Program-made: the position numbers and the translations under genes | Shown here: piece after piece, positions 5,735 to 58,087 of the stretch | Layout: the number at the start of each line of letters is the position of its first letter | Numbering within the stretch: position 1 is the stretch's first letter | UHGV virus genome: UHGV-1493261 | Reading direction: 5' to 3' (one strand) | Source of the DNA: a virus | DNA length: 64,000 nt | The notes under the pieces: model-generated | Seen by the model: only the letters and a program-made list of their open reading frames with translations | What the model was told of the DNA's origin: nothing | Database searches by the model: none

Positions 5735-8700
5735 ATGCAAGAAATGAACCTCAACCGCCGCCCATATTGGGATGACTGGAATCCAGAGAAGCGCTTTTCG
5801 CGCATCCTATTCCGTCCGGCACCTATCAAAGTTCAGACGCGTGAACTGAACCAGATGCAGACCATCTTCCAGGATCAACTGGAGAAACTTGGCAACCATC
5901 TGTTCAAAGACGGTTCAATGGTTATCCCCGGCGGCCTGACGATCACCAACACTGCAGTTTCCATGAAGTTCACTCTGGCTGGTGGTAGTGAGTTCACTGA
6001 TCTGGAAGGTATCTCCGAACTCTATGTTCTGGGTAAGGACAACAATGCGAAAGCACGCGTCCTGTCTCTGGAACGTTACCCAGCTGAACCGGATACAATG
6101 TATGCCATCTTAGAGATGACTGAGAGTGGTAGTTCAGACGGTTTCGAAGCTGGCGACAACCTATACTTCAACACCTATGACGTGAACGATAACTTCATCC
6201 GTGTCGGCTATGGTGTGGCCGATACTGTTGGCGGTTCGATTGTCGCTCGCATGACAAAGGGTGTTTATTTCGTTCGTGGTATGTTCCTGGATGTTGAACC
6301 AACCACTTTGATCGTAGACAACGCATCGAACTCTACATCTCACCGCATTGGTTTCAAAGTTACAGAAACAATCGTGACTGAAGCAGAAGATGAAAGTCTG
6401 TTCTCCAATGCTCAGGGTACTCCGAACTCTAAAGCCCCTGGTGCGCATCGCCTGCGCGTCGACCTCGTGTTGTCTCGCTACGATTATGATGAAGAAGTGG
6501 CCGACTTCGTTGAACTGGCGAAGGTGAAAGATGGTCGTATTCAGTCTATGGTCGCCCAGTCAACGTACAACATCCTCGAAGACGCGATGGCTCAGCGCAC
6601 CTATGAGACCAATGGTGACTACAATGTCTCTACTCACCAGATCGACCTGCGTGAACATCTGAAAGAGAACAACAACGGCGGCGTTTACGCTCCGGCTGAA
6701 GGTGGTGATGAAAGCAAATTCGTGGCGGTTATGAAGCCAGGGATATCCTACGTTCGTGGTCGTCGTATCGAAAACCTCGGCGAAGAGCTGGTCACAATTG
6801 ACAAAGCCCGTGACACTGATACCCTGAACAACAACCCTGTGGCTGTTTCGACTGGTAACTATCTGGTGTCCAAGAACTCCAAAGGGGTTCCGGTTGTCTC
6901 CCGTACAATCCGCTACAAGTTCCTGAACGCATCCAGCGATGTACAGGCCACCGCCCTGCTGATTTCGGCAGAGCGCTCCGGTACTGAATTCCGTCTGTAT
7001 ATGCGCGACCTCGTTGTCACCGGGGACATGGGCACGGTGACCAAAGTCGCTTATGAAGAAAGCGGTACAACGATGTTCTCTTGCGAACTGGAGTCCAATC
7101 AGTTCAGTCAGAGTTCGGCGATTGACCTGATCTTCCCTCTTCCTGTATTCGGCGTGAAGACCCTAGCACCTACTGGCACCATCGACATCAACTACACCGT
7201 CCTGCGTTCTAACAAAATCACATTGAACGCGGCAGGCACAGGCTCTATCTCTGCTCCTCTGGGATACAGCTTCAGTCCTGAGTTTTCTTTGTACTCAGCA
7301 GCGAAGGCAGACGGCACCACCGCTCAGTTCGATATCTCTTCGGGGCTGTCCCTGGCTGGTACTCCGGTTGGTTCAGCACTACAGATTTCCCTGGGTGCGG
7401 GGTACGCCAACCAGTCTATCAACCTGTTGGCATTGATGGTCCGCACCACAGCGACGATCAAGACCAAGACTGTTACCGAAGTCACCGAGACTGTGACGTT
7501 TACTGTGGCAGCCAGCGTACAACTTGGGAACCACGACGGATACAAGCTGGTCAGCGTGAAGAACGCAAATGGTGCTGACGTCACCTCGAACTTCACTCTG
7601 GACGGCGGTCAACGCGATGCGGCGTACTACCGTTCTAACCTCATATCGTCTACTGGAGCCATCTCAGGCGTGTTCACAGTGGTGTACCAGTACTTCGCTC
7701 ACAGCTCTGGTGATTTCTTCACAGCGGACTCCTATTCGTCCATCAACTACCCAGACATCCCGAACTATGTTTCATCCAGTTCTGGTACTGTGTATGGGTT
7801 GGCCGACAGTCTGGACTTCCGTCCCAAGATCACCAGCGGAGCGTCTGACACGGACATGGTTCGCCCGAACACCGCGATCATCCTAGATGCAGAGTACTAT
7901 CTGCCTCGTATTGATGCCGTGTATCTGGCAGACAACGGCGTGTTCAACGTTGCTCGCGGTGTGAGTTCCAACAACCTGGCTTCCCCTGCGATCCCAGACA
8001 ACGGCATGCGCCTGTATGAATTAATGATCCCACCATACACAGCCAACATTGACGACATCCAGATTCGCACTATCGACAACCGCCGCTACACGATGCGCGA
8101 TATCGGTAAACTGGAGACCCGTATCTCCAATGTCGAATATTACACCTCACTGTCTCAGCTGGAATCCTCGGCGATGGCGCAACAGGTGTTCGATCCAATT
8201 ACTGGCAACCCGCGCTTCAAGAACGGTATCGCAGCAGACCCGTTCAAAGACTTCCGTCTGATCGACGATTTGTCTGCAGACTGGGTGGGTTCAATCGACA
8301 CTGACAATGGTCGCCTGCGTCCGTTTGTTCAGCAGAACGCGATTGACCTGACGCCAGTCGGTTGGAACAACGTTCAGGATGGTATGGTTGTATGCAACTA
8401 CACCCGTGAGATCTCTGTCCGCCAGGACTATGCAACCACGACCATCAACGTGAACCCGTATGCGGTGTTCAACTGGGAAGGTTTCCTGAAACTGAACCCG
8501 ACTACTGATTACTGGTTTGAGAACTACTATGTTACTCCACGTGTGATCAACGAAACGATCAACACCCGTGGTGCGATCAAAGAAGGTTCTGTGTACGGCA
8601 CATGGCGTACTGTGTCCGTGTCTGAGCGTGTGTGGGAACCGCATGGTGCGGGTGGTGTATGGTGGGGCTACCGCTACCGCACGACTGTGTCCACCCGTGA

Positions 8701-13585: not shown

Positions 13586-14302
13586 ATGAGTGCTATGTCA
13601 GAACGCCTATTATCCACCCTCAGTGCTATCCAAGCGCGGGATGAGGTCGCTCAAGAAGTCATGGAGAAGACCTCGCCTATGGCCGGAAAAGATTACGATC
13701 CGGACACAGGCGAATGGTTGGGTGAAAAGCCTGCGGGGTATGAGTCTGCGGGGTATGAGCCTGTGGTGTTTCCTCCTTCATTGGACCCAGAAGAGCTGAA
13801 GCCCAAGGAGTCTAAGGTTCCAGACTTCGAAGACACTGATGCCACCACCGACTACAAACGTATCCGTGACACGACTTATGCCATGCAGGAAGCCACGATG
13901 TTCATGATGGGACAGGCAGCCAAACTTGCGACGACGACTGAAGCACCCCGTGCTTTCACAGTCTTCAAAGAGTTGGGTGAACTCATGCGCGGTCTGAACA
14001 AAGACCTGATGGAGAACCAGAAAACTATCAAGGCGGTCACGGGCGACAGAGAGCCACCTCCTGGAGACGAAACAACCGTCGAGGTCACCACGTCCCCTGA
14101 TGGCACAACCACGGTCAACGTCGGTAAACAGGCCAGGTCTTCTCGTGATCTACTGAAGACCATCGAAGACGCCCGTAAACGTGCTGAAGAACGTACTGCA
14201 GCGAAAGCTGCATCCAAAGGACCTGATCCCGAAGAAGATGTAATCGACGTTCAGGCAGAGCCGAAGGAAGAAGGTGAAGACGATGGCGTATCAGAAGCGT
14301 GA
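13586..14302 (+). CDS. gp16: Terminase small subunit (gp16-like)
   Basis: Segment DYKRIRDTTYAMQEATMFMMGQAAKLATTTEAPRAFTVFKELGELM aligns with remembered T4 gp16; acidic C-terminus; overlaps the large subunit start. Confidence 0.7.
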   Translation: MSAMSERLLSTLSAIQARDEVAQEVMEKTSPMAGKDYDPDTGEWLGEKPAGYESAGYEPVVFPPSLDPEELKPKESKVPDFEDTDATTDYKRIRDTTYAMQEATMFMMGQAAKLATTTEAPRAFTVFKELGELMRGLNKDLMENQKTIKAVTGDREPPPGDETTVEVTTSPDGTTTVNVGKQARSSRDLLKTIEDARKRAEERTAAKAASKGPDPEEDVIDVQAEPKEEGEDDGVSEA

Positions 14303-18529: not shown

Positions 18530-18577
18530 TCTAAACATAAGCAGTACGACACCAACTTGAAACGAAGGATCTATATC

Positions 18578-24367: not shown

Positions 24368-25216
24368 ATGAAACCTGAATTGCAAAAACTATTTGAGGGC
24401 GTTAACGGCCTCAGCACCGACTTCCTGGATAAAGTGTCTGGTCTGCTGGAATCTAAAGTAGAAGCCGCTCGCCTGACCGCTATTCAAGAAACCGAAAACG
24501 CTGCCAACGTTGAGCGCCTACGTCTGGTTGAAGCTCATCAGGCTGAGATTGCTCAGCTGAAAGAGTCTCACTTGATGGAAATCGCGACCAAAGTCGATGG
24601 CTTCCTGAACGCGGTTGTAGAAGAGTGGGCTAACAAGAACGCTCCTGCAATCGATGCTCAGATCAAACGTGAAGCGGCTGAAAATCTGCTGACTGGCCTG
24701 ACTGGTGTTCTGAAAGAAGCTGGTATCAACTTTGCCACCGACGAAAACGGCCAGATCGCTGCGCTGACCGCCCGCCTGACCGAAGCAGAACGACGTGCTG
24801 CGATTGCCGAAAACGAAAACCGTCAAATCAAAGAAGCCGCGAATGCGACTCTGCGTGACTCTGTGATCGCCCGTGTCTGTGAAGGTATGGTCGACACCAA
24901 GAAAGCAACGGTTGTCAATCTGCTGGAAGCTGTGCAGTTCACCACCGAAAGCGAATTCGCTTCCCGCGTACACACCTTCCGCAACCTGGTAGAAGGTAAG
25001 TCCGTGAAGAAAGAAGACGATGACGATGACTTCCAGGACAAAGTCGGCGGAAAAGACGGTGATGACGACAACAAAGATGTTAAAGTCGAAGAAGGCAAAA
25101 AGCCTAAGAAAGAAGGCGATGAAGACGACGATGAAGATGAAACAGACAAAGAGCTGAAAGAATCTATCAAGCGTCAGTTGGCCGACTATAATCGTCGCTT
25201 CGGCATCAACGGCTAA
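24368..25216 (+). CDS. gp22: Prohead scaffolding core protein (gp22-like)
   Basis: 282 aa, highly charged/acidic helical protein with a KEDDDDDF..DEDDDEDE tail, immediately upstream of the major capsid gene. Confidence 0.7.
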   Translation: MKPELQKLFEGVNGLSTDFLDKVSGLLESKVEAARLTAIQETENAANVERLRLVEAHQAEIAQLKESHLMEIATKVDGFLNAVVEEWANKNAPAIDAQIKREAAENLLTGLTGVLKEAGINFATDENGQIAALTARLTEAERRAAIAENENRQIKEAANATLRDSVIARVCEGMVDTKKATVVNLLEAVQFTTESEFASRVHTFRNLVEGKSVKKEDDDDDFQDKVGGKDGDDDNKDVKVEEGKKPKKEGDEDDDEDETDKELKESIKRQLADYNRRFGING

Positions 25217-25229
25217 TTTTAGCAGCCAC

Positions 25230-25255
25230 AGCCCTCGAAAGGGGGCTTGATTTTG
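25230..25255 (+). terminator. Terminator-like hairpin
   Basis: AGCCCTC-GAAA-GGGGGCT followed by TGATTTT. Confidence 0.45.
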
Positions 25256-25307
25256 AACTACTAAGTAATTTCAACTTAACTGAATATCAATGTAAGGAAT
25301 GACCATC

Positions 25308-26633
25308 ATGGCTAAGAAACTTGTTACCGAACAAATGCGCGAGCAGTGGCTGCCAGTTCTTCAGAAAGAATCTGAAAGCATCCAGCCGCTTTCTGCCGAA
25401 AACGTTGCCGTCCGTCTGCTGCAAAACCAGGCTGAGTGGAACGCCAAAAACCTGGGCGAATCTGACGCTCCTGGCTCCGTGAACGCCTCTGTTGGCAAAT
25501 GGCAGCCAGTCCTGATCGACATGGCCAAACGTCTGGCTCCGGTCAACATCGCGATGGACTTCTTCGGCGTTCAGCCGCTGTCTGGTCCTGACGGTCAGAT
25601 CTTTGCTCTGCGTGCTCGCCAGGGCATTTCAGACGGTGGATCCAACACCCAACATTCCCGTAAAGAACTGTTCATGCAGGAAGCTGATTCTGGCTACTCT
25701 GGTGACGACACTGCTCAGGCTGGCGACCCATCTGGCTTTACCCAGACTGAGATCGAAGGTTCCGGCGCTGCCACCACCACCATTGGTAAAGGCATGCCAA
25801 CCAAGGACGCTGAACTTCTGGGCACCACCACCAACCCATGGGCACGTGTTGGTATCACCGTTCAGAAAGCAACCGTGACTGCGAAGTCTCGCGGCCTGTA
25901 CGCTGACTACAGCCATGAACTGCGCCAGGACATGATGGCGATCCACGGCGAAGACGTTGACAGCATCCTGTCCGACGTGATGGTAACTGAAATTCAGGCA
26001 GAGATGAACCGTGAGTTTATCCGCACCATGAACTTCAGCGCAGTACGCTTCAAAAAATTCGGCAAGAACGGCATTGTGGACATCTCCACTGACATCTCCG
26101 GTCGTTGGGCGCTGGAAAAATGGAAGTACATGACTTTCATGCTGGAAGTTGAAGCGAACGGCATCGGTGTTGACACCCGTCGTGGTAAAGGCAACCGTGT
26201 TCTGTGCTCCCCGAACGTAGCATCCGCTCTGGCGATGTCTGGCATGCTGGATTATGCTCCGGCGCTGCAGGAAAACACCAAGCTGGCGATTGATCCGACT
26301 GGCCAAACCTTCGCTGGTGTGCTGTCTAACGGTATGCGTGTCTACATCGACCCGTATGCAGTAGCAGAATACATCACCCTGGCATACAAAGGCGCAACCG
26401 CACTGGATGCTGGTATCTTCTTCGCGCCATACGTGCCGCTGGAAATGTACCGCACCCAGGGTGAAACCACCTTCGCACCACGCATGGCGTTTAAAACCCG
26501 CTACGGTATCTGTGCTAACCCATTCGTTCAGATCCCAGCGAACCAGGATCCACAGGTCTATGTGACTGCGGACGGTATCGCCCAGGACAGCAACGTGTAC
26601 TTCCGTAAAGGGCTGATCAAAGGCCTGTTCTAA
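25308..26633 (+). CDS. gp23: Major capsid protein (gp23-like)
   Basis: DFFGVQPLSGPDGQIFALRA, FKTRYGICANPF and C-terminal YFRKGLIKGLF align with remembered T4 gp23 motifs (DICGVQPMNSPTGQVFALRA, FKTRYGIGINPF, YFRRVYVKGI). ATG at 25308 chosen for Shine-Dalgarno spacing (alternative 25299). Confidence 0.9.
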   Translation: MAKKLVTEQMREQWLPVLQKESESIQPLSAENVAVRLLQNQAEWNAKNLGESDAPGSVNASVGKWQPVLIDMAKRLAPVNIAMDFFGVQPLSGPDGQIFALRARQGISDGGSNTQHSRKELFMQEADSGYSGDDTAQAGDPSGFTQTEIEGSGAATTTIGKGMPTKDAELLGTTTNPWARVGITVQKATVTAKSRGLYADYSHELRQDMMAIHGEDVDSILSDVMVTEIQAEMNREFIRTMNFSAVRFKKFGKNGIVDISTDISGRWALEKWKYMTFMLEVEANGIGVDTRRGKGNRVLCSPNVASALAMSGMLDYAPALQENTKLAIDPTGQTFAGVLSNGMRVYIDPYAVAEYITLAYKGATALDAGIFFAPYVPLEMYRTQGETTFAPRMAFKTRYGICANPFVQIPANQDPQVYVTADGIAQDSNVYFRKGLIKGLF

Positions 26634-38948: not shown

Positions 38949-39821
38949 ATGACAACTACATTTTCTAAGAACGTGAATCTGAATCTGGCTTTCGGTAATG
39001 CAAAGGGCGACGTCACATCGCCTGACTTTGGTAAGATCCGCAATCAGGCGAAACTGGTGCTGGAAGAGACCCGCGAACTGCTGGAAGCGGCGTTCTTTGA
39101 CCATGATGTGAAGGTGGAATTCACTGCAACTCCACGAGTCCTGAAAGAACCTGTTGTTGTCGACATCAAAGGCATTATGCGCCAGATCATGGATGCCCAT
39201 GGCGACATCACAACAGTCAACGACGGTGTGGCTCATATTGCTGGTTTCGACGGTGACGAATGCCTACAGCGCGTGTATGCCTCTAACATGAGCAAGTTCG
39301 TCCGCAATGAAGGTGAAGTTGTTCCAGCGCTGGAGTATTACTACAACAAAGGCTTCCCACGCGAAAGTCTACGCATCGAAGGGGAATTCCCTCAGGCATG
39401 CATCAAAGTGGTGGACACCATCACCGTCGACGGCAAAGAATACCCGGCTGGCAAGTTCCTGAAGAACATGGCAACCTTCAAAGAGCCTGACTTCTCTGAT
39501 ATGTTGACCACCGAGCCTAAGCGCCAGATCACCGAAATCATTCTGACGGGCACGGCTACCCCAGGTCGACTCAGTTCTAACGAACATGCTGGTGTTGCCT
39601 ACGCGCCGTTCGATTTTATTGACGAGATCGTAGGATACACCAAGATGGGCTTCCAGGCGTTCTCTGGTGAAACAATCGAGAGTTATATTCCTGTGTTTGT
39701 TTTCAATGAAGACAACTTCCCAACTCTGCCGTTGATCTGGGGTGAATGGAAAGCCAACGTTCGTATCTATGTGTCCAGCCCAGTACAATCATCTATCACC
39801 CAACTGACCCGTATCGATTAA
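38949..39821 (+). CDS. Protein with N-terminal MazG-like (all-alpha NTP pyrophosphohydrolase) signature; candidate dNTPase
   Basis: LVLEETRELLEAAF carries the EExxE motif; sits where T4 has the DNA polymerase gene after regA. Remaining about 170 aa unassigned. Confidence 0.4.
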   Translation: MTTTFSKNVNLNLAFGNAKGDVTSPDFGKIRNQAKLVLEETRELLEAAFFDHDVKVEFTATPRVLKEPVVVDIKGIMRQIMDAHGDITTVNDGVAHIAGFDGDECLQRVYASNMSKFVRNEGEVVPALEYYYNKGFPRESLRIEGEFPQACIKVVDTITVDGKEYPAGKFLKNMATFKEPDFSDMLTTEPKRQITEIILTGTATPGRLSSNEHAGVAYAPFDFIDEIVGYTKMGFQAFSGETIESYIPVFVFNEDNFPTLPLIWGEWKANVRIYVSSPVQSSITQLTRID

Positions 39822-39843: not shown

Positions 39844-39875
39844 AACAGAGGCTATAATGGCCTCTGTTTTCTTAT
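39844..39875 (+). terminator. Rho-independent terminator
   Basis: AACAGAGGC-TATAATG-GCCTCTGTT followed by TTTTCTT; the track ATG at 39857 lies in the loop. Confidence 0.6.
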
Positions 39876-39889
39876 TCTGTGAGGATACC

Positions 39890-41086
39890 ATGAAAGACAA
39901 AGCCCTGGACGTCCCGTACTGCGGTGTCCGCGAAGAAAAGATAAAGTCGGCCAAACCGGTTCTCAGTCCGACCCATACCCGCCTGTCTTACGAATGGATG
40001 CGCGATCGTTATCAGATCCACGTCAAGAAGGACGTCCAGCGCCTTCCTGCTCCTTGGACTGATAATCCCATATTACGCCAGGTTAAATTCTGTAACGTCC
40101 GGAGAGAGCACGACAGGCAGTCTCTCAACCTGATCAATAACATTGTCAAGAACGATGCTCTGGGCATGGCAGACAAGATGTTCAACTGCGTGTTGTTCCG
40201 CATGTTCAACCTCTGGGATCCGATCCAGGCTATCGGCGGCGCGATGACGATCAAAGAATTCGCCAAGATCAACCTCGATGCAACCCGCGAACGACTTCAG
40301 AAGTTCGAGGCCGACGGCGGTAAAGTATTCACCAATGCCTTCAACACGGGCGGTCTGAAGCAATGCCTGGCTTTCCCTGAGATGGTTGTCAACCACAAGG
40401 AGCAGCGCTTCGGTGGGATGATGGTGAATCTGATCTGTAAAGACGGTTCAACCCAGAACATGGATTATAAAGAAGCCAAGGCGATAGCCGAAGCAGAGCC
40501 GGACTTCTACACCATCGAAGGTTGGGAACCGTACATGCCAATGCGTGTCATCCGCTCCCTGAAGGCATTCGTCAACAAGTATCCAAATTATTTCCATGAC
40601 CTGCTGCGCCTTGATACGCCTTTGGAAGTATACCAGCGCATGTACGACGACATCGAAGGGCTTGGTCCATTCCTGGCCTATCAGATCTGGGTTGATTTCA
40701 CGTACATTCCTGGATATCCTTTCAGTGAGAACCACTTCACGGTTGCTGGACCAGGCTGTCGCGCAGGGATTGATCTTCTGTTCCTGAACAAAGACGGTAT
40801 GACCCACGAAGAATGCATCTTCTGGTTGCGGGACAATCAGGACGCAGTTTATGGTCCTCTTGGGTATAACAGGGAAGAATTTTGGTCTGAGGAAGAGCCT
40901 TGGGATCGCCATTTAAATATAATGGCAGGAGAAAATATGTTTTGTGAACTTCAGAAATATACCCGTTGTGTAGAGGCCATACAGCAAGGTAAAAAACCGC
41001 GCGGGAAGGTTGGATACGATGGGGAAGGACGACCTAAAGCGACGACATCTGGTTCTAAAAACCTACTAAATTTATTTAAAAAGTAA
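39890..41086 (+). CDS. Hypothetical protein (398 aa), enzyme-like
   Basis: ATG with GAGGA Shine-Dalgarno after the terminator; no family recognised. Confidence 0.6.
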   Translation: MKDKALDVPYCGVREEKIKSAKPVLSPTHTRLSYEWMRDRYQIHVKKDVQRLPAPWTDNPILRQVKFCNVRREHDRQSLNLINNIVKNDALGMADKMFNCVLFRMFNLWDPIQAIGGAMTIKEFAKINLDATRERLQKFEADGGKVFTNAFNTGGLKQCLAFPEMVVNHKEQRFGGMMVNLICKDGSTQNMDYKEAKAIAEAEPDFYTIEGWEPYMPMRVIRSLKAFVNKYPNYFHDLLRLDTPLEVYQRMYDDIEGLGPFLAYQIWVDFTYIPGYPFSENHFTVAGPGCRAGIDLLFLNKDGMTHEECIFWLRDNQDAVYGPLGYNREEFWSEEEPWDRHLNIMAGENMFCELQKYTRCVEAIQQGKKPRGKVGYDGEGRPKATTSGSKNLLNLFKK

Positions 41087-41145: not shown

Positions 41146-42075
41146 ATGTTTTACGAATTATTGATTTCTAAAGGCGGTAAACCGCATTTTATCAAGAAGT
41201 ATTTGAGGATGATTCAATCTTTCAAATATTCTGATGGTGACTACACTGAATTACACCACATCCTTCCCAAGAGCATGTTCCCTGAATATTCTAAAGATAA
41301 GATCAATTTGGCAAGACTTACTGGCAGGCAACATTATCTTGCCCATGTGTGTTTGGCCTTGGCTTTCCCGAATTCTGATATGGTATATGCTGTTATTTTG
41401 ATGAGCCGTGGGGGTAGGTATACACCAACGGGTATAAAATTTAATTCTCACCTTTACGAAAAGTTAAGGAAAGAATTTGGACAAAGAATATCCAAACTCA
41501 CAAAGGGTGTCTCTAAATGCGTCGGGGCAAACAACCCAATGTATGGGAGAAGAGGAAAGAATAATCCCCAATATAGATATAAGAGAACTCCAGAGCAAGT
41601 CAAGAAAATTACCAAAGGATTGATGAAAATCCATGAAAGGATGGCTTCTGATCCTGAATATAAAAGGCGGGTTTTAGAGAAACGCCGCGCCAACATGGAT
41701 TTAGAACAATTTTCTGAACGTGCCAGGAAAGCTAAACTTGGGGAACTTAATCCAAATCATGGCAAAGATATTACCAACACGTTTACCCCTGAACAACGAC
41801 AGAAACAAATAGAAGGTATTAGAAAAGCCCATTTATCAAAAATGCCCTGGGAGAAACCGCGTTGGTCTGATGAAAAGGACATGTATTGGGCGAAAGCTGA
41901 TAAATTCCTTGAAGCAATGAAAACAATGAAAAGAGCGGAAGCCCTCATGCATGTGTACGGAACAAAGGATTTGAAGGCTTTTAATGCGACAAACAGCATT
42001 ATCGAACGTTTCAATAGAGGGTGGGAACCTTTGAAATGTCCTAAATGGACAGAACGATACGGTTCTTCTGAATAA
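41146..42075 (+). CDS. HNH homing endonuclease with NUMOD3-like motifs
   Basis: TELHHILPKSMFPEY .. NLARLTGRQHYLAHV HNH core; NPMYGRRGKNNP and GELNPNHGKD NUMOD3-like; AT-rich coding sequence; hairpin CAGGAACT..AGTTCCTG immediately upstream. Confidence 0.8.
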   Translation: MFYELLISKGGKPHFIKKYLRMIQSFKYSDGDYTELHHILPKSMFPEYSKDKINLARLTGRQHYLAHVCLALAFPNSDMVYAVILMSRGGRYTPTGIKFNSHLYEKLRKEFGQRISKLTKGVSKCVGANNPMYGRRGKNNPQYRYKRTPEQVKKITKGLMKIHERMASDPEYKRRVLEKRRANMDLEQFSERARKAKLGELNPNHGKDITNTFTPEQRQKQIEGIRKAHLSKMPWEKPRWSDEKDMYWAKADKFLEAMKTMKRAEALMHVYGTKDLKAFNATNSIIERFNRGWEPLKCPKWTERYGSSE

Positions 42076-45067: not shown

Positions 45068-45940
45068 ATGACAAATCGTACTGGCATAAAACTCACTCCT
45101 GAAGTCCTGAAGTCACATATCGCTGAGGTGATTTACGAAGACCGCGAAGTCGGCGGTCACCGGGCTATCACTTGTCATTTCAAGATGGATAACGGCTTCG
45201 TCGTTCACGGCACCAAGCCCAGCACATCCATAGACCCGGCCAACTTCGATGAAGCCCTGGGCAAAGAGATTTCCTACAATAACACCTTCGACCAGCTGTG
45301 GCAGCTGGAGGCGTACCGGGCGCTTGTTGAACAAGATCTGTTGGCCAAAGCCACGGAAACGGCAGAGATACAGATCGATCAATACGCTGTTGAACGTAGC
45401 GCCCTCTGTCCGGCCTATCACCTCGGCTTCAATGTGATGGTTCAGGAAGTGATGTTCAAAGCGGAAAATGGTGAGCGCTTCTTGGCATCTTTCGTTTGTG
45501 GGCCGGATGACATGGAACTTGTTGTTGAATCTCACAACGCCAAATCTCGTAAGGCTGTTAGTGATTTCCTGCGCGCCAACTCCAAACTCGATCTCACTTA
45601 TTCGCCATTGGTTCTGCGCATCGCCAAGATTTGTCATGAAGCCAACCGCGCATACTGCAAGTCTATTGGTGACGACTCTCAACTGCCTTGGGAACAATCT
45701 CCGGCCTGGCAGCGTGAGAGCGCTTGCAAAGGTGTTATCTTCCATCTCACTGGTGATCGTAAGCCCAGCGAATCGCATGAGAGATGGATGGCGGAGAAGG
45801 AGTCTGAGGGATGGGTGTATGGCCCAGTCAAAGACCCTCAGACCAAGCAACACCCTTGCATGGTTCCGTATGGAGAACTCCCGGTACAACAACGCTCCAA
45901 AGATTATATTTTCAAATCCATTGTAGACTCCTTTAAATAA
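45068..45940 (+). CDS. RyR-domain-containing protein
   Basis: C-terminal ESHERWMAEKESEGWVYGPVKDPQTKQHPCMVPYGELPVQQRSKD matches the RyR repeat pattern (W..GW.YG .. K.HP.LVPY.EL). Confidence 0.6.
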   Translation: MTNRTGIKLTPEVLKSHIAEVIYEDREVGGHRAITCHFKMDNGFVVHGTKPSTSIDPANFDEALGKEISYNNTFDQLWQLEAYRALVEQDLLAKATETAEIQIDQYAVERSALCPAYHLGFNVMVQEVMFKAENGERFLASFVCGPDDMELVVESHNAKSRKAVSDFLRANSKLDLTYSPLVLRIAKICHEANRAYCKSIGDDSQLPWEQSPAWQRESACKGVIFHLTGDRKPSESHERWMAEKESEGWVYGPVKDPQTKQHPCMVPYGELPVQQRSKDYIFKSIVDSFK

Positions 45941-46090: not shown

Positions 46091-46267
46091 ATGACCGACA
46101 ACAAATTAAAACGCGCCGGACTTGATTGTCTTGACAATTCATTCCGCCCCAGTGATGTTCTGGTCGCCCAAATGGAAAACAACCGGGATTTCATTGAAAC
46201 TATGCTGGAGAACGCCGACGCGAACTCCAAACACTCCAAAGCCCAAAAAGGTCAAAACGATGATTGA
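46091..46267 (+). CDS. Small hypothetical protein (58 aa)
   Basis: ATG overlapping the vWA gene start. Confidence 0.35.
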   Translation: MTDNKLKRAGLDCLDNSFRPSDVLVAQMENNRDFIETMLENADANSKHSKAQKGQNDD

Positions 46268-48461
46268 GTCATTAACATTTAAGAATGCGGTTGCGACCGT
46301 CGCGCCGTCTAACCATGTAATCGTTGTGGATATCTCCGGTTCCATGTATCGTTCACTTCCAGAAGTCCGTAAGCATCTGAAGGAGAACCTGCCTTCCCTG
46401 GTGAAACCCGAAGATACTGTGAGCATCCTTTACTTTTCATCTCGCGGTGATTTCGGAACGGTATTTGCCGGACGTCAGATCGGTGTCGCATCTGACCTGA
46501 GCGAGCTGAATAAGCTGATCGACCGTTTCCTGCAACCATCCGGCTGTACTGGTTTTGTTGAGCCATTGAAACTGGCGATGGATACTGCGCGCGGCCTGAA
46601 GAAACCCGGCTACGTCAACAACCTGGCATTCATGACCGATGGTTATGACAACTGCTGGCGCTCCAATGAAATCCTGGATACCGCCGAAAAACTTCCTTCC
46701 GCGTTCGACAACGTTACATTCATCGAATACGGCTGGCACTGTAACCGTGAACTGCTGGCGCAGATGGCCGAACGCTCTGGTGCAACCCACGTTTTCGCCG
46801 AAGGTCAGACTGAATATCAGACCGAGCTGGAAAACGTGCTGAAGTCATCAGTGCCGAAGGTGAAAGTTGATGTCCCAGTCATCTACACCCATGCCATCTA
46901 CGTCGAAAACGGTGTGGCAACAGTACTGGCGGTGCAGGACGATGACGCTCACCCGGTCGGTTATGTGAGCATCCCTGAGAGCGTCACCAAGCTGTGGGTT
47001 GTAAACCCTAACATGATCGACCAGATGGATAGCCTGACGGACATCCAGGCGGCATACGTGCTGGCGTTCTACGGCGTACACACTATGGACGCAGATCTGG
47101 TTTGGGCTGCGCTGAAGAAGACGGGCGACGTTCGCTTCATCAAACAGTACAGCAACTGCTTCACCAAGCAGGACTACTCCAACATCAAGAACGATCTGAC
47201 CCAGGCCATCGTTGATGACCAGCTGCGCGGCGTTGACGGTATTGACTATGACCTGGTTCCAGCTGAAGATGCGACCACCGTCGTTGATGTGCTGACGTAC
47301 CTGGCTGAAGCTGGTGTGCCTGTTGCTACCAAGCATCCGATGTTCTCCTATAAGAGTATCGGGCGCGGTACGGTTCAGAAAACCGACGACACCGAAGACA
47401 AGCTGGCAGAACAGATCGCGAATGCTCAGTCCAAAGAAGAGCGTAAAGCCCTGGCTCTCAAGCTGGCAGAACACGAAGAGTGGAACCCGACGTTCGAACC
47501 TACCAACGACCTGGGTGTTGTGCCAATCAGCGATTTGGTCTATAATTCCGAACGCCCGAACATCAGTGTGCGTACAATTCAACACGGTACTGTGGCTGTG
47601 CCTGAATTCGCACAGAAGAAGTTTGGCCTGCCTGAAGAACTGGATACTTTCCAGTGGCGCAACTACACCATCGTCAAAGATGGTATCATCAACGTGAAGA
47701 CCCTGCCGTTCAAGGCTGATATCGAAGTTGTACAGAAGCTGATCGAAATGGGCGTCCACGTGTTTGGTGGTCCGGAAGTGTTCATCTTGAACCTGGAAAG
47801 CGTACCGCTGGTCAACCGCGCCATGGTCAAGAACATCAGTGCTGCTCAGTTCTTTGCGGATAATGTCCGTCTGGAAGCCCTGAAAGGCAAGCAGAAGGTG
47901 CTGAAGTTCTATCGAGACGCCCTGGTTGGTAAGGGTAACGCCAAAGGCCTGGCAGTACAGTACGGCGCTGAGGCGGCCGAGTTCCTGTCCTCCTATGGCA
48001 TCCGCGATTACGGCTTCTCACCGAAGACTGAGACCAAAGAGTCTACCGACTTCTACATGAGCCGTGAGCTGAACGTGAAGATCGCTGGCGCTTCTTCTCT
48101 ACCGTCTATCGCAGCGGTACAGAAGAAGATAGCCGAGAACAAGAAACTCAATGCTGGTGACTTGTTCATCGCCAATGCGCTGAAGGAGTACGAAGCATTC
48201 GTGAAGTCTCCTATGATCACTGCCGTGCCTGAAGCCTTACAGAAACATCTGATCGAAAACTGGATCGACGCTGCTGCCAAGGCGGCCATCACCGAAGTCC
48301 GTGCTCTGAACAAGACGCTGTCTAAAGTGGTGTATGGTATCGTTGCTGGTCATGGCTGGTTCACCGACCTCGACCTGGAAGAGTCCACCATGGAAGTTGA
48401 AGTGGATGGGGTGAAGTACAAGGTCACTGCCGAACTGGCAGAGAAAGAAATCAAAATCTAA
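46260..48461 (+). CDS. von Willebrand factor A (vWA) domain protein (733 aa)
   Basis: MIDAS motif VIVVDISGSM (DxSxS) near the N-terminus; AAAGG Shine-Dalgarno; long C-terminal region of unknown fold. Confidence 0.7.
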   Translation: MIESLTFKNAVATVAPSNHVIVVDISGSMYRSLPEVRKHLKENLPSLVKPEDTVSILYFSSRGDFGTVFAGRQIGVASDLSELNKLIDRFLQPSGCTGFVEPLKLAMDTARGLKKPGYVNNLAFMTDGYDNCWRSNEILDTAEKLPSAFDNVTFIEYGWHCNRELLAQMAERSGATHVFAEGQTEYQTELENVLKSSVPKVKVDVPVIYTHAIYVENGVATVLAVQDDDAHPVGYVSIPESVTKLWVVNPNMIDQMDSLTDIQAAYVLAFYGVHTMDADLVWAALKKTGDVRFIKQYSNCFTKQDYSNIKNDLTQAIVDDQLRGVDGIDYDLVPAEDATTVVDVLTYLAEAGVPVATKHPMFSYKSIGRGTVQKTDDTEDKLAEQIANAQSKEERKALALKLAEHEEWNPTFEPTNDLGVVPISDLVYNSERPNISVRTIQHGTVAVPEFAQKKFGLPEELDTFQWRNYTIVKDGIINVKTLPFKADIEVVQKLIEMGVHVFGGPEVFILNLESVPLVNRAMVKNISAAQFFADNVRLEALKGKQKVLKFYRDALVGKGNAKGLAVQYGAEAAEFLSSYGIRDYGFSPKTETKESTDFYMSRELNVKIAGASSLPSIAAVQKKIAENKKLNAGDLFIANALKEYEAFVKSPMITAVPEALQKHLIENWIDAAAKAAITEVRALNKTLSKVVYGIVAGHGWFTDLDLEESTMEVEVDGVKYKVTAELAEKEIKI

Positions 48462-53830: not shown

Positions 53831-54268
53831 ATGGCTGGCGTATGGTGTGATGTCTTGCTGGTTCGTTACAGCGTAAATGGGAGCACGCAAGTGTGTTCTG
53901 CTTTCTATCCGGTCCCGTTCTCTTCCGGTGGCCTGACGGTTCAGCGAGTTCTTGATATTGAGGCAGATCTGAACACGAAGCCATATATCGGTGATACACA
54001 AGTGTTGGGATACGATCTTCTGAACGAAATGTTGATCGATGAAGATCGTGTAGAAACCATTGTTAGCCGTCAAGAAATGGAGGTCTTGATGAAACCGGAA
54101 GGCACCGAAAAGACTGAAGTTCAAACGATGTCTGTGCCTGTCGCGCCAACACAGGAACGCCTTGATGCCATTGCTGGATTATTCACGTATGGATTTTGTG
54201 ATGATCGCATGGCTCGTGGTATCTATGCCGCCGCACTGGGCGTTGAGAAACAAACGGAGCAAATATGA
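53831..54268 (+). CDS. Hypothetical protein (145 aa)
   Basis: Tightly packed after the upstream stop. Confidence 0.5.
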   Translation: MAGVWCDVLLVRYSVNGSTQVCSAFYPVPFSSGGLTVQRVLDIEADLNTKPYIGDTQVLGYDLLNEMLIDEDRVETIVSRQEMEVLMKPEGTEKTEVQTMSVPVAPTQERLDAIAGLFTYGFCDDRMARGIYAAALGVEKQTEQI

Positions 54269-54534
54269 GCACAAAGACTGTAATCGTGTGGGGAGTCGGT
54301 ATGGGGCGTTGTTGTCCTCACAAGACGATCACATTCACACAGGATGACCGTGTAGAAATCTCTCGCATCGAGACAGCCGAAGCACCTGTTGGGGATTCAA
54401 TGATCAGAACTCCGGTGTCCCGTGTGCAGGTATTGCGCCCAGTAGTTGAGGTCATTTGCGAAGATTGCGGACAGCGCGGCACCATGATGTTGGAAGAGAA
54501 TTCTGATGAAGAAATCGTGGTGAAAGGCTATTAA
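54265..54534 (+). CDS. Small Cys-containing protein (89 aa)
   Basis: RCCPH .. CEDC; ATGA overlap with the upstream gene. Confidence 0.4.
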   Translation: MSTKTVIVWGVGMGRCCPHKTITFTQDDRVEISRIETAEAPVGDSMIRTPVSRVQVLRPVVEVICEDCGQRGTMMLEENSDEEIVVKGY

Positions 54535-54624
54535 TTCCGCTTTATTCAATATGTTTTGTTAGTTAAACTGTAGTCCTCTTGTAGTGAACATGAAAGTAAA
54601 CATTAACCCAACGGAGAAATCCAG

Positions 54625-54903
54625 ATGAATCGTACTGAATTTGTTGCCCACATTGCTTCGACCCAGAATATCACCAAAGGCGAAGCGGAGAAAGTGGTGG
54701 CATCCTTTATCGACGGTGTTAAAACTGCAGTTGCTGCAGGCGCATCTGTACAGCTGGTCGGCTTCGGTGCGTTCGAAGTGAAACACCAAGAAGCGCGTGA
54801 AGGTCGCAACCCTCTGAACGGCCAGACCATTCAGATCGCGGCGAAAAACGTTGTGAAATTCAAAGTGGGCGAAGGTCTGAAGAACGCTGCCAACGGCAAG
54901 TAA
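54625..54903 (+). CDS. HU/IHF-family DNA-binding protein
   Basis: GFGAFEVKHQEAREGRNPLNGQTIQIAAKNVVKFKVGEGLK matches the HU beta-arm signature. Confidence 0.85.
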   Translation: MNRTEFVAHIASTQNITKGEAEKVVASFIDGVKTAVAAGASVQLVGFGAFEVKHQEAREGRNPLNGQTIQIAAKNVVKFKVGEGLKNAANGK

Positions 54904-54954
54904 TTCTATCTGACGCGCGGCCAGGCTCTGCAATCAGGGCATGGCAAAAGAGAA

Positions 54955-54983
54955 AGCCGGAGTACAATGCTCCGGCTTTTTCG
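54955..54983 (+). terminator. Rho-independent terminator
   Basis: AGCCGGAG-tacaatg-CTCCGGCT followed by TTTTT. Confidence 0.65.
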
Positions 54984-55031
54984 TTCTTGGGGATCGGGTA
55001 AACTATAGGCAAATCCCATAGGAGGAAGAAA

Positions 55032-56750
55032 GTGACAGCATTCAACCAATATACCAAGGCGCTTGACGGCGTCGGACCAGTCAGCATAGACCGCATCAAG
55101 TCTCTTGCCACTGAGTTCTTCCCGTATGACACCGCCAACCCCGGCCAGATGGAATGCATCGTTGAAGCCATTGATGCCCTTGTGAATAAGAAATTCAAAC
55201 ACGTGATCATCGAGGCTCCGACTGGTGTAGGTAAATCCCTCATCGGCACTACCATCCATAACGTGCTTCGCCATTTGGTTCTTGAGCACAACCCGTATGG
55301 TCAGTTCCGCACGTCTATCACGACGCCGACCAAAGGTTTACAGGATCAGTATGCAGCAGAGAAAGCCGTGGCGATAGACATCCTGAAGGGCAAGAAGAAC
55401 TACCGTTGCCACATCAGTCCCGACCTATACTACAACGCCATTCAGTGCCGTATGGCATGCCGTGATGGCCACTGTAGTAAGAATCGTTGCCCATATGTTC
55501 AGGCGCGTCGACAGTGGACCGACGTCTCCTCCTTGCGCTGCACCAACGCCGCCATGATGGTGGAGATGTGCACGACGATCTGTATGAAGCCGGAAAACCG
55601 CGCCGATATGCTGATCCTTGACGAGTGTCATAAGATGCCCTCTACGCTCCTAGAGCATACTATCATGGAATACAACACAAAGGCTGTGGAAGGGCTGCTT
55701 ACGATCCCCGAGGGAGTGCCTATCGTGGAGACCATCAAGGATATCATCATCCGCACAGAGAACTATGAATTGGGCAAGCTGTATTCCCTGTCTGGTGAGA
55801 TGCATGCGATATTTGATGAACTGCACGGCAAGGTTGAAGCCCTGTTGGAAACTCTTGAGGAACTGGTAGAGGACGAGCGCCTGACTGAAGCCCAGGTGAT
55901 GAAGCTGTCTGATATTATTGATACTCTTCACAACCTCAGCGACTACTGTGGTATCATGGGGCAGACCAACGCCAGCACTTTCATCGTACAGGAGAAGGAC
56001 AAGGGTATGATTCAGTTCAAGCCTGTCATCGCCTCTGATGTATCCCAGTTCGGTCTGTTCCGCAAGGGTGACTACCACGTCCACATGTCGGCGACCATTT
56101 GTGGGATTGACTCGTACGCCCGGTCACTGGGTATCCGTGAGGGTGAGTACCACAAGATACAGATCGGCAACCCTATCCCGATTGAGAACCGGAAAGTCAA
56201 CTACATGCCCATCATGAAGATGACGGCGAACATGGGTGACTACGAGATGAAGAAGCTGGCTGAATACGTGGATGAGATTATCGCGTTCCACCCTGGACAG
56301 TCTGGCATCATTCACACAGTCAGTTATGACCGCGCCCTGGCTCTACAGAAGTTCAGTAAGTACCGGAATATGATTCACGTTCCTCGTACTCGTAAGGCTC
56401 TGATGGACATCATGGAACACGCGTTCAGGACGAAGACGCCTTGTGTCATCGCCAGTCCGGCCATGGAAGAGGGGTATGACTTCAAAGGCGATTATAGTCG
56501 ATTTCAGATCTTGATCAAGGTGCCATACGATTACCTTGGTGATCCTCTGGTGGCCCACGTCAACAGTGTGGACCCATCGGCGTACTTCAGGATGGCGGTA
56601 CTGCGTATCGTTCAGATGTGTGGGCGTTCTGTCAGGGGCGTGAATGACTGGGCTGCGACATACATCCTTGATTCTTCTTTTGAATCACTGATGATGCGCA
56701 ACCCAGAGTTCTTCCCCGCTTGGTTCACTGATGCCGTGTTTGAGGTTTAG
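55032..56750 (+). CDS. DinG/XPD-family (Rad3-like) Fe-S helicase
   Basis: GTG start with GGAGGAAG Shine-Dalgarno; APTGVGKS Walker A, LILDECHK DEAH-like box, four-Cys cluster CHISPDLYYNAIQCRMACRDGHCSKNRC. Confidence 0.8.
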   Translation: MTAFNQYTKALDGVGPVSIDRIKSLATEFFPYDTANPGQMECIVEAIDALVNKKFKHVIIEAPTGVGKSLIGTTIHNVLRHLVLEHNPYGQFRTSITTPTKGLQDQYAAEKAVAIDILKGKKNYRCHISPDLYYNAIQCRMACRDGHCSKNRCPYVQARRQWTDVSSLRCTNAAMMVEMCTTICMKPENRADMLILDECHKMPSTLLEHTIMEYNTKAVEGLLTIPEGVPIVETIKDIIIRTENYELGKLYSLSGEMHAIFDELHGKVEALLETLEELVEDERLTEAQVMKLSDIIDTLHNLSDYCGIMGQTNASTFIVQEKDKGMIQFKPVIASDVSQFGLFRKGDYHVHMSATICGIDSYARSLGIREGEYHKIQIGNPIPIENRKVNYMPIMKMTANMGDYEMKKLAEYVDEIIAFHPGQSGIIHTVSYDRALALQKFSKYRNMIHVPRTRKALMDIMEHAFRTKTPCVIASPAMEEGYDFKGDYSRFQILIKVPYDYLGDPLVAHVNSVDPSAYFRMAVLRIVQMCGRSVRGVNDWAATYILDSSFESLMMRNPEFFPAWFTDAVFEV

Positions 56751-57514
56751 TAACCCGCAACGAAGGACAGATGGCACTTGACATTCGGTTCCAACGACGT
56801 CACAGAAACCGTCATATTGTCCGTATCTTGGCTGAAGTCAATGGTGGCGAGAGGTTTGGTCTGAATATGGTTATAGACACTGTAGATCAGATCCTCGCCA
56901 CGATACCCTACCTTCCCATCGGTGTCTTGCCAATGACCCAGTGTCTCATCGTAGACATGCACTCTGAACTCGATCATATGGAAGAGTGCCTTGGGGATGT
57001 CCTTGAGTACGCTGGTGCCAACCACGGGAATCTCTATACTGGAATCATTGGAGTTCCCTTCATAGACCGAAGCCCATGCAAAGGTAGGATCACCCCCAGC
57101 AACAGGGGTTCGCTTCCAGTATTGGAATTCTGGGTTGCCCGAAGCGTTCTTCTGAAGTAGAATGACCTCACCACCTTTGAAGTTCGAGGTATCGATGTCG
57201 CCTCGCTGAAGTTCATCTGCTGGAGATCCAATAAATTTCCAACCTTCGCGATCCAGTAAAGACTTATAATAGTCGGTGAACACGTTGCTGTCTTCTGCAT
57301 CGTTGATGGCATCTTTGAGACCTTGGCCTGTCACCATCTCGTTGAGCTTCAACCACATGTTCTTGACAGCAGACGCTGCTGCGACTTGTCCAGCAGTCCC
57401 ACCTGCAGCATAATCATAGATGATATCTTCTGACTTGATAGCATCATAGATAGAGAGGAGCAATTGCTCAATCTGCGGGGCGGTGAGACTGAAACGATAT
57501 GCGCGGGGTGCCAT
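56747..57514 (-). CDS. Hypothetical protein (255 aa); start uncertain
   Basis: ATG at 57514 with AGAGGAA Shine-Dalgarno; track ORF extends to 57673 but would overlap the divergent RNase H gene. Confidence 0.5.
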   Translation of the reverse strand: MAPRAYRFSLTAPQIEQLLLSIYDAIKSEDIIYDYAAGGTAGQVAAASAVKNMWLKLNEMVTGQGLKDAINDAEDSNVFTDYYKSLLDREGWKFIGSPADELQRGDIDTSNFKGGEVILLQKNASGNPEFQYWKRTPVAGGDPTFAWASVYEGNSNDSSIEIPVVGTSVLKDIPKALFHMIEFRVHVYDETLGHWQDTDGKVGYRGEDLIYSVYNHIQTKPLATIDFSQDTDNMTVSVTSLEPNVKCHLSFVAGY

Positions 57515-57559
57515 AGTTTCATTCCTCTTTCTATAAAACCAGTTTGGGATATTTATATC

Positions 57560-58087
57560 ATGATAGAAATTTATTCTGACGGGGGTTCTAACCCGAAGAC
57601 CAACCAGGCCGCAGGCTGGGCATTTGTCATCAGGCCAATAACGGGTATGCAATGGAAGGTGTTCTTCGGCCATCTACCTCCCCCGTCCACCAACAATATC
57701 GCCGAGTTGTTGGGCGTGACCAACGCATTGAAGCTACTGTGGGCATTCTCAGGAAAGGGTGAGCGCAGAATACCAAAGGCAACAATTTGGTCTGACAGCC
57801 AATACACCATCAAGAGTGTCACCGAATGGCGAACGAAGTGGGAGTATCAGGGGTTCCCAGAAAAGAACGTTGAACTCATCAAAGATCTGTTCAGAATCTA
57901 TGATCTCGTTTGTTCAATCTGTGAAGTTGAACTAAAATGGGTTAAGGGTCATGCGGGGCACGAAGGCAACGAACTTGCCGATGACTGGGCCACAGCAGCC
58001 AAAAACGACAGCAACTTCCTGATTGAGAATGACAATATCTCGGTGAAGAAGGTTGTTGGATCTTTTGATGAATTTATCGGTATCTGA
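57560..58087 (+). CDS. rnhA: Ribonuclease HI (bacterial-type RNase H)
   Basis: IYSDGGSNPKTNQAAGWAFVI, NNIAELLGVTNALK, IWSDSQYTI and KGHAGHEGNELADDWA match the RNase HI DEDD fold. Confidence 0.85.
   Translation: MIEIYSDGGSNPKTNQAAGWAFVIRPITGMQWKVFFGHLPPPSTNNIAELLGVTNALKLLWAFSGKGERRIPKATIWSDSQYTIKSVTEWRTKWEYQGFPEKNVELIKDLFRIYDLVCSICEVELKWVKGHAGHEGNELADDWATAAKNDSNFLIENDNISVKKVVGSFDEFIGI

Follow-up and report, generated by a model that had tools for sequence, protein, structure and literature searches.

The described proteins closest to the one considered here are the bacterial HU proteins, represented by E. coli HU-alpha and HU-beta and by B. subtilis HBsu, together with IHF and the SPO1 protein TF1 (PDB 1WTU/1EXE). 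Proteins of the HU type touch the minor groove of DNA, and 5-substituents on modified bases project into the major groove. Thus, any preference of such a protein for modified DNA would be indirect, arising from flexibility or charge, as has been argued for TF1. The residues through which HBsu contacts DNA, a set with an experimental basis, are located in its arms (R53, R55, and R58) and in a "pit" (K41, K80, K83, and K86) (PMC8892312). In HUs that occupy short sites, a salt bridge to D26 ties up K3, as summarized in two reports (PMC2528193, PMC9900698). The first of these also states that in TF1, which is without D26, residue 3 contacts the DNA 8 to 9 bp from the kink and the binding site is 37 bp long (PMC2528193).

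SPO1 is one of several phages, along with SP8 and SP-10, that are documented to be hmdU based (PMC5889632). In ViI-like phages, approximately 40% of T is replaced by 5-(2-aminoethoxy)methyl-dU (5-NeOmdU) (PMC5889632, PMC11721090). This base is made on the DNA from 5-hmdU in a process wherein the enzyme class of 5-hmdU DNA kinase takes part (PMC5889632), and the genes of the pathway are reported to be conserved across the phage family (PMC5889632, PMC11721090).

In the 64,000-nucleotide stretch of viral DNA that we analyzed (hereafter the window), an ATG codon opens an ORF of 92 amino acids that spans exactly 54625..54903 on the plus strand. An earlier note on this DNA had proposed that a phage-encoded protein with the HU/IHF fold is specified here, and this family assignment is secure. 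The PF00216 (Bac_DNA_binding) profile covers the protein end to end (residues 1–90 align with profile positions 1–90 of 90) with a score of 103.8 bits and an E value of 6e-30 (cutoff, 22.4 bits), and PHROG 379, annotated as "DNA binding protein", matches it with an E value of 4e-36. An AlphaFold2 model of the monomer, computed from 61 homologs, has a pLDDT of 96.4 and displays the HU topology, in which two helices are followed by a beta-sheet bearing an extended arm and by a helix at the C terminus (helices at residues 3–14, 18–37, and 83–89, along with five strands). When this model was compared with the PDB by Foldseek, the top 50 matches were all HU, IHF, Hbb, or pA104R (TM 0.85–0.91). The arm carries the motif R58-x-G60-R61-N62-P63 plus G66, wherein R61, N62, P63, and G66 are invariant across all 19 representatives of the Ackermannviridae HU clade that were compared.

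An antisense ORF of 124 amino acids (54559..54933, minus strand) overlaps the HU gene completely and exceeds its length, such that a naive longest-ORF gene caller takes it instead of HU. We ruled out this candidate as the coding frame. Because the plus frame has both a Pfam match and a dN/dS of 0.10 to 0.19 between genera, which reflects purifying selection, the plus frame is the coding one.

The phage protein is like bacterial HU in its length class (90–92 amino acids) and fold, and has in common with it the R58-x-G-R61-N-P63 motif, G66, K80, K86, and the core residues G46, F47, G48, and F79. It differs in being only 40 to 41% identical to HU-alpha and HU-beta of E. coli, in carrying the clade-fixed changes K41S, R55Q, K83E, and K3R along with the loss of an acidic residue 26, and in being the product of a core gene of a lytic phage. 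The NCBIfam equivalogs for HU-alpha and HU-beta (NF008023 and NF007945) were not reached (67.3 bits versus a cutoff of 162, and 69.7 versus 157), nor were those for IHF (NF001401, NF001222, TIGR00987, and TIGR00988, with 72.9, 67.9, 55.3, and 62.7 bits versus cutoffs of 111, 115, 120, and 120, respectively). Because none of these cutoffs is reached, the protein belongs to the superfamily but is orthologous neither to HU-alpha or HU-beta nor to IHF-alpha or IHF-beta of enterobacteria. IHF has the same fold, and the best single NCBIfam and PDB scores are of the IHF-alpha type. However, the identity to IHF is 29 to 30%, the IHF-alpha score of 72.9 bits stands against a cutoff of 111, and IHF consists of two subunits, alpha and beta, whereas the phage protein is encoded by a single gene and is presumably a homodimer. 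Among PDB sequences, IHF and HU proteins are the best matches (E 1e-21 to 1e-15), and SPO1 TF1 is found far down the ranking (E 4e-11).

TF1, whose sequence we checked against PDB 1WTU, is likewise an HU homolog from a phage whose DNA is built from hmdU, and it also is without Asp26 and has Glu83 in place of Lys83. The two proteins are 38% identical. Residue 61 is Phe in TF1 (and in CP-51; Tyr in SP-10) versus Arg in the window protein. TF1 keeps R55, which is Q55 here, and is 99 amino acids long with a nine-residue C-terminal extension, whereas the 92-residue window protein ends in NAANGK and has nothing that corresponds to LKYEDFAK of TF1. The DNA differs as well, since that of SPO1 is fully substituted with hmdU, whereas that of the window phage contains the cationic base 5-NeOmdU plus T. 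The nearest cellular relatives are HU proteins of Bacteroidota (Flavobacteriia), which are 52 to 53% identical and have in common with the phage protein the stretch IxIAAKNVVKFKxG. These proteins keep K3, E26, K/R41, and R55, and are much more positive in residues 41–86. Given an identity of 40 to 41% to E. coli HU and the location of the nearest cellular relatives among Bacteroidota, the phage HU represents an old phage lineage and was not recently acquired from the host.

The proposal that the gene is phage encoded is confirmed by the surrounding DNA, which is 97 to 98% identical to that of the Escherichia/Enterobacter phages ZQ1, fGh-Ecl02, A221, and AV101 (Ackermannviridae, Aglimvirinae; Agtrevirus-like). 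Judging by an annotated relative, the window contains a tailspike gene, a head/tail module, and genes for a clamp, a clamp loader, UvsW, UvsY, and RegA, followed by a block of small genes. After this block come HU, a DinG/XPD-like helicase (55032..56750, plus strand; PF13307, PF04851, and PF00270; PHROG 2488), a gene on the minus strand, RNase H, a gp55-type late sigma factor, and gp46/47-type recombination nucleases. Directly upstream of the HU region is a gene for a DUF7425 protein (53831..54268), and just upstream of HU itself is an ORF for an 89-amino-acid, Cys-containing product (54265..54534; PHROG 31251, no Pfam match). Its counterpart in Salmonella phage P46FS4 has 97% identity, and those in a small number of other Agtrevirus-like phages have 41 to 53%. 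The same ORF is cut in AV101 to a 12-codon remnant, apparently by a deletion between 7-nt direct repeats (AATCGTG). Elsewhere in the window, an N4 Gp49/Sf6 gp66-family domain and a RyR domain are combined in one protein (45068..45940), and a 779-amino-acid protein with a VWA domain is encoded at 46122..48461.

The order HU-helicase-minus-strand gene is conserved in Agtrevirus, Limestonevirus, Kuttervirus, Taipeivirus, and Miltonvirus, and the genes upstream of HU vary among these five genera. Identity to the window protein is 100% in ZQ1, Marshall, and AV101, and is 97% in Dickeya Limestonevirus, 85% in Kuttervirus, 75% in Klebsiella Taipeivirus, and 50% in Serratia Miltonvirus. A PF00216 protein that is 37 to 40% identical is present in Acinetobacter phage SH-Ab 15599, another member of the Ackermannviridae. 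Vibrio phage 1.244.A does not share the gene order, and its PF00216 protein (30% identity, 42.7 bits) is encoded elsewhere in the genome. Match lists had pointed to Vibrio Ackermannviridae without HU, a conclusion that was overturned by the whole genome of 1.244.A, as the divergent protein is missed by tblastn at E 1e-5. Thus, an HU-family gene was found in seven of the seven Ackermannviridae branches examined, the Acinetobacter and Vibrio phages included. The pace at which HU diverges is approximately that of the neighboring core helicase. A "putative DNA binding protein" beside a helicase, a ribonuclease, and a late sigma factor appears in the published core gene set for about 150 Vi01-like phages (PMC10892097). 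The gene is therefore already known, both from this core gene set and through the identical protein annotated in ZQ1, Marshall, and AV101. These phages also carry a second gene outside the region covered by the window (AV101 24960..25460), a core gene annotated as a "putative histone-like protein" that adjoins topoisomerase II genes. We rejected it as a relative of HU because it has neither a Pfam match nor tblastn similarity to HU.

The HU gene would constitute a short transcription unit of its own, bounded upstream by a conserved promoter-like element and downstream by an intrinsic terminator. A Shine-Dalgarno sequence, GGAG (54613-54616, plus strand), is positioned 8 nt before the ATG and is kept in six of six orthologous loci. 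The promoter-like element (54539..54573, plus strand) is composed of GCTTTATTCAATA, 12 nt, and TAAACTGTAG, wherein TAAACT resembles a -10 hexamer and the -35 region is poor. Across five genera this element hardly varies, and this holds even for Serratia phage 3M, in which the identity of the HU protein is only 50%. Indeed, the 90-nt spacer upstream of HU is strongly conserved, and reads CGCTTTATTCAATA, approximately 12 nt, TAAnCTGTA(G/A)T, CCTCT, TGTAGTGAAC, and, farther on, GGAG. The HU leader also contains a direct repeat of TGTAGT with an 11-nt period (approximately 54568-54590).

The GCTTT...TAAACTATAG arrangement is present a second time at 54975..55008 (plus strand), where it overlaps the U-tract of the terminator and precedes the helicase gene, and HU and the helicase are each preceded by GCTTT-N19/20-TAAACT(G/A)TAG. 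The composite GCTTT-N16-22-TAANCTNTA occurs twice in the 64-kb window, where 0.02 occurrences are expected, and in the 146 kb of AV101 it is found only at the same two places, before HU and before the helicase. This restriction to the regions upstream of the two genes suggests that HU and the helicase are co-regulated via a dedicated shared element, which would be a locus-specific promoter or operator. Sigma-70 and T4-type late promoter calls were also set aside, as a consensus scan called no promoter upstream of HU. Given its weak resemblance to a sigma-70 promoter and its restriction to this locus, the element may instead serve as an operator or a leader. The same restriction in the window and in AV101 led us to reject the motif as a general promoter class, and thus it is of no use for assigning HU to early, middle, or late expression. 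A search of the literature yielded no Ackermannviridae transcriptome, promoter study, late-promoter consensus, or data on the timing of HU expression. Three other recurrent intergenic sequences are possible phage promoter motifs: TTCAATAACT precedes the genes that start at 18557, 42190, and 48954, TATAATTCTAAA precedes those at 18557 and 26738, and ACTAAATAT precedes structural genes at 5735 and 20826.

That the gene has its own terminator, as the earlier note had also claimed, is evident from the 3′ region. A first GC-rich hairpin without a U-tract (54920..54945, plus strand) appears in both the MFE and centroid folds, and an alignment of six phages likewise predicts a hairpin at this position, with some compensatory pairs. 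The intrinsic terminator follows (54950..54988, plus strand) and consists of a stem-loop (54950-54982; core GCCGGAG / CTCCGGC) and then the U-tract UUUUUCGUUCUU. The fold of the HU 3′ region is more stable than that of all shuffled sequences (z = -4.1, 0 of 200), and the terminator hairpin was also picked up by a consensus scan. Its stem is retained in six phages of five genera, where it takes the forms GCCGGAG, GCCGAGG, GCCGGGG, and ACCCCGG, with both sides changed at three stem pairs. The loop (54953-54979) is inverted between relatives, such that the window and Dickeya phage XF4 have GCCGGAG-TACAATG-CTCCGGC and AV101 (approximately 13727-13753) has GCCGGAG-CATTGTA-CTCCGGC. The hairpin has been flipped as a unit between these relatives, with the stem and its function retained. 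A search for Rfam families in the HU leader and 3′ UTR gave nothing near gathering scores.

The window also encodes a 5-hmdU DNA kinase (39857..41086, plus strand; PF18723 HMUDK_hel, E 1e-78, 264.9 bits), an enzyme that is the hallmark of phages with hypermodified thymidine and thus direct evidence within the window that this phage hypermodifies thymidine. This gene, called only "hypothetical protein" in related records, is flanked by genes for a MazG-like pyrophosphatase (PHROG 2144; 38949..39821) and a homing endonuclease (PHROG 655; 41146..42075). In Vibrio phage 1.244.A (MG592609, 4881..8238), the divergent HU-like gene adjoins a gene for a tryptophan-synthase-beta-like PLP enzyme, whose AV101 ortholog is 50% identical, and a gene for a 604-amino-acid protein of the sigma-70 family adjoins these two. 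The arm of the HU-like protein of 1.244.A reads ERAYPIPGKPG; close to its tip is an aromatic residue, a feature also of TF1 and the SP-10 protein. We rejected the placement of HU beside a hypermodification gene as a general feature, since it is seen in the Vibrio phage only and the PLP ortholog of AV101 is located approximately 86 kb from HU.

At the positions through which HBsu contacts DNA, the window protein has K53, Q55, and R58 in the arms and S41, K80, E83, and K86 in the pit. Three of the seven canonical basic contacts (S41, Q55, and E83) are therefore neutralized or reversed. We compared the 19 clade representatives with the 42 nearest cellular HUs and found that the former carry R3 (19 of 19), A26 (18 of 19), S41 (19 of 19), Q55 (19 of 19), and E83 (18 of 19). 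The cellular proteins instead have K3 (41 of 42), E or D at 26 (30 of 42), K or R at 41 (39 of 42), R55 (41 of 42), and K, A, or S at 83. Residue 26 is non-acidic in all seven Ackermannviridae proteins examined and is acidic in both E. coli HU-alpha and HU-beta. The mean net charge of residues 41–86 is +2.7 in the clade versus +6.8 in the nearest cellular HUs; counted by hand, it is +6 for each of the two E. coli proteins and +4 for TF1. A globally lower charge was rejected, as the net charge and pI of the whole protein (9.7) match those of E. coli HU (9.6–9.7). The lower charge is confined to the DNA-binding half, and holds mainly relative to what is a biased sample of nearest (Bacteroidota) relatives.

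The changes at positions 41, 55, and 83 hint at altered DNA binding. More specifically, the loss of these basic contacts predicts binding that would depend less on charge than that of host HU. Because residue 26 is not acidic, the salt-bridge rule (PMC2528193) leads us to expect that the combination of R3 and A26 would favor a long, wrapped binding site as in TF1. Binding that is less electrostatic and extends over a longer site would suit DNA carrying tethered amines. One could therefore envision the Ackermannviridae clade as an HU that has been re-tuned for partly cationic, hypermodified DNA via K41S, R55Q, K83E, and a freed R3, a proposal that we regard as rather unlikely in this full form.

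Our search of the literature found no functional study of this protein or experiment on any Ackermannviridae ortholog, and thus statements about function rest on homology, with dimerization, DNA bending, an intracellular role, site size, and a preference for modified DNA all treated here as predicted properties. By analogy with characterized family members, it is highly probable that the gene encodes a homodimeric architectural protein of the HU type (DNABII) with which the phage serves its own DNA. The dimer would use its two beta-ribbon arms to clamp the DNA in the minor groove, and at the tip of each arm, Pro63 would wedge between base pairs and thereby kink the DNA. It would most likely act in the infected cell, on replicating phage DNA that is hypermodified from hmdU, where it may assist replication, recombination, and transcription, and it probably is not a component of the virion. 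In a contrary arrangement, HU would be packaged with the genome as a DNA-condensing protein that aids compaction or ejection; a link to packaging had been raised in the earlier note. This reading could draw on the minus-strand gene after the helicase (56747..57673), which is annotated as "unknown structural protein" in phage XF4. However, HU is not among the proteins detected by LC-MS/MS in CsCl-purified Sajous1 virions, in which other DNA-associated proteins were detected (PMC10892097), and its gene sits among replication, recombination, and nucleotide-metabolism genes and not in the head module. The proteomic result, which concerns a single proteome and a 10-kDa protein, is weak as negative evidence, and taken together these observations make a packaging role very improbable. 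A role in late transcription, also raised earlier, likewise found no support, as the only tie is the gp55 gene approximately 3.5 kb downstream of HU.

Of the two remaining alternatives, one is that the protein resembles TF1 in preferring phage hmdU/5-NeOmdU DNA over host DNA and selectively marks or regulates the phage DNA, for example by switching transcription classes or by shaping which thymidines become hypermodified. The link to modified DNA had been suggested in the earlier note by reference to TF1, and the part of it that concerns context has held up: the phage makes hmdU-derived DNA, and HU genes are retained both throughout the Ackermannviridae and in the Herelleviridae SPO1, SP8, and CP-51 (all of the TF1 type) and SP-10. 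In both families, DNA is built from hmdU and an HU homolog is retained throughout, which is suggestive only. The count, however, is of two families only. A tally of four independent hmdU groups with HU was rejected because SH-Ab 15599 belongs to the Ackermannviridae and SP-10 and CP-51 both belong to the Herelleviridae. HU genes also are common in phages for which no modification has been reported (SPbeta, Burkholderia KS10, and many Ralstonia phages among them), and the 5-HMUDK phages of Pseudomonas and Microbacterium are absent among the main HU-bearing groups, as judged from match lists of the kind that misled us for Vibrio. Residues argue in both directions. TF1, the CP-51 protein, and the Ackermannviridae proteins are all without an acidic residue 26 and have an acidic residue 83, but the window protein has R61 rather than an aromatic residue, has no C-terminal tail, and is no more similar to TF1 (38%) than to host HU. 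The adjacency of the HU-like gene to the pathway PLP enzyme in Vibrio phage 1.244.A is consistent with such a specialist but is specific to that lineage, and minor-groove contact leaves room only for an indirect preference. We therefore consider this selective role possible, although doubtful. It is more improbable still that the protein is directed at the host, either replacing or poisoning host HU (for example through heterodimers), or that it stays active while a phage-encoded DNA-mimic inhibitor blocks host HU. SPO1 does provide a precedent, as it encodes both the HU inhibitor Gp46, which needs the charges of the pit residues K80, K83, and K86 (PMC8892312), and TF1 with its E83, and the window protein has E83 plus S41. 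No Gp46-like inhibitor is known in the Ackermannviridae, however, 40% identity to host HU makes heterodimers uncertain, and the locus gives no hint of host-takeover genes.

The general architectural role is thus the reading we favor, and the identification of the gene at 54625..54903 is a correct but routine annotation, since the identical protein has already been deposited and named in many phage genomes. The wider interest of the protein comes from its setting. Ackermannviridae are widely used as candidates for biocontrol and therapy, and approximately 40% of the T in their DNA bears a positively charged side chain. A specialization comparable to that of TF1 is a possibility suggested by the sequence comparisons, though an unlikely one. 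If this HU is tuned to hypermodified DNA, it would extend the single classical case, that of SPO1 TF1 and hmU, to hypermodified bases, and would offer a handle on how phage and host DNA are distinguished during infection. If the specific re-tuning via K41S, R55Q, K83E, and R3 is real, 5-NeOmdU/hmdU phage DNA would be bound in a long-site, less electrostatic mode, and the protein could tell phage from host DNA or stay active despite a DNA-mimic inhibitor of HU. It would then constitute the first adaptation of an HU to a hypermodified base, and the principle established by TF1 would have its second example.
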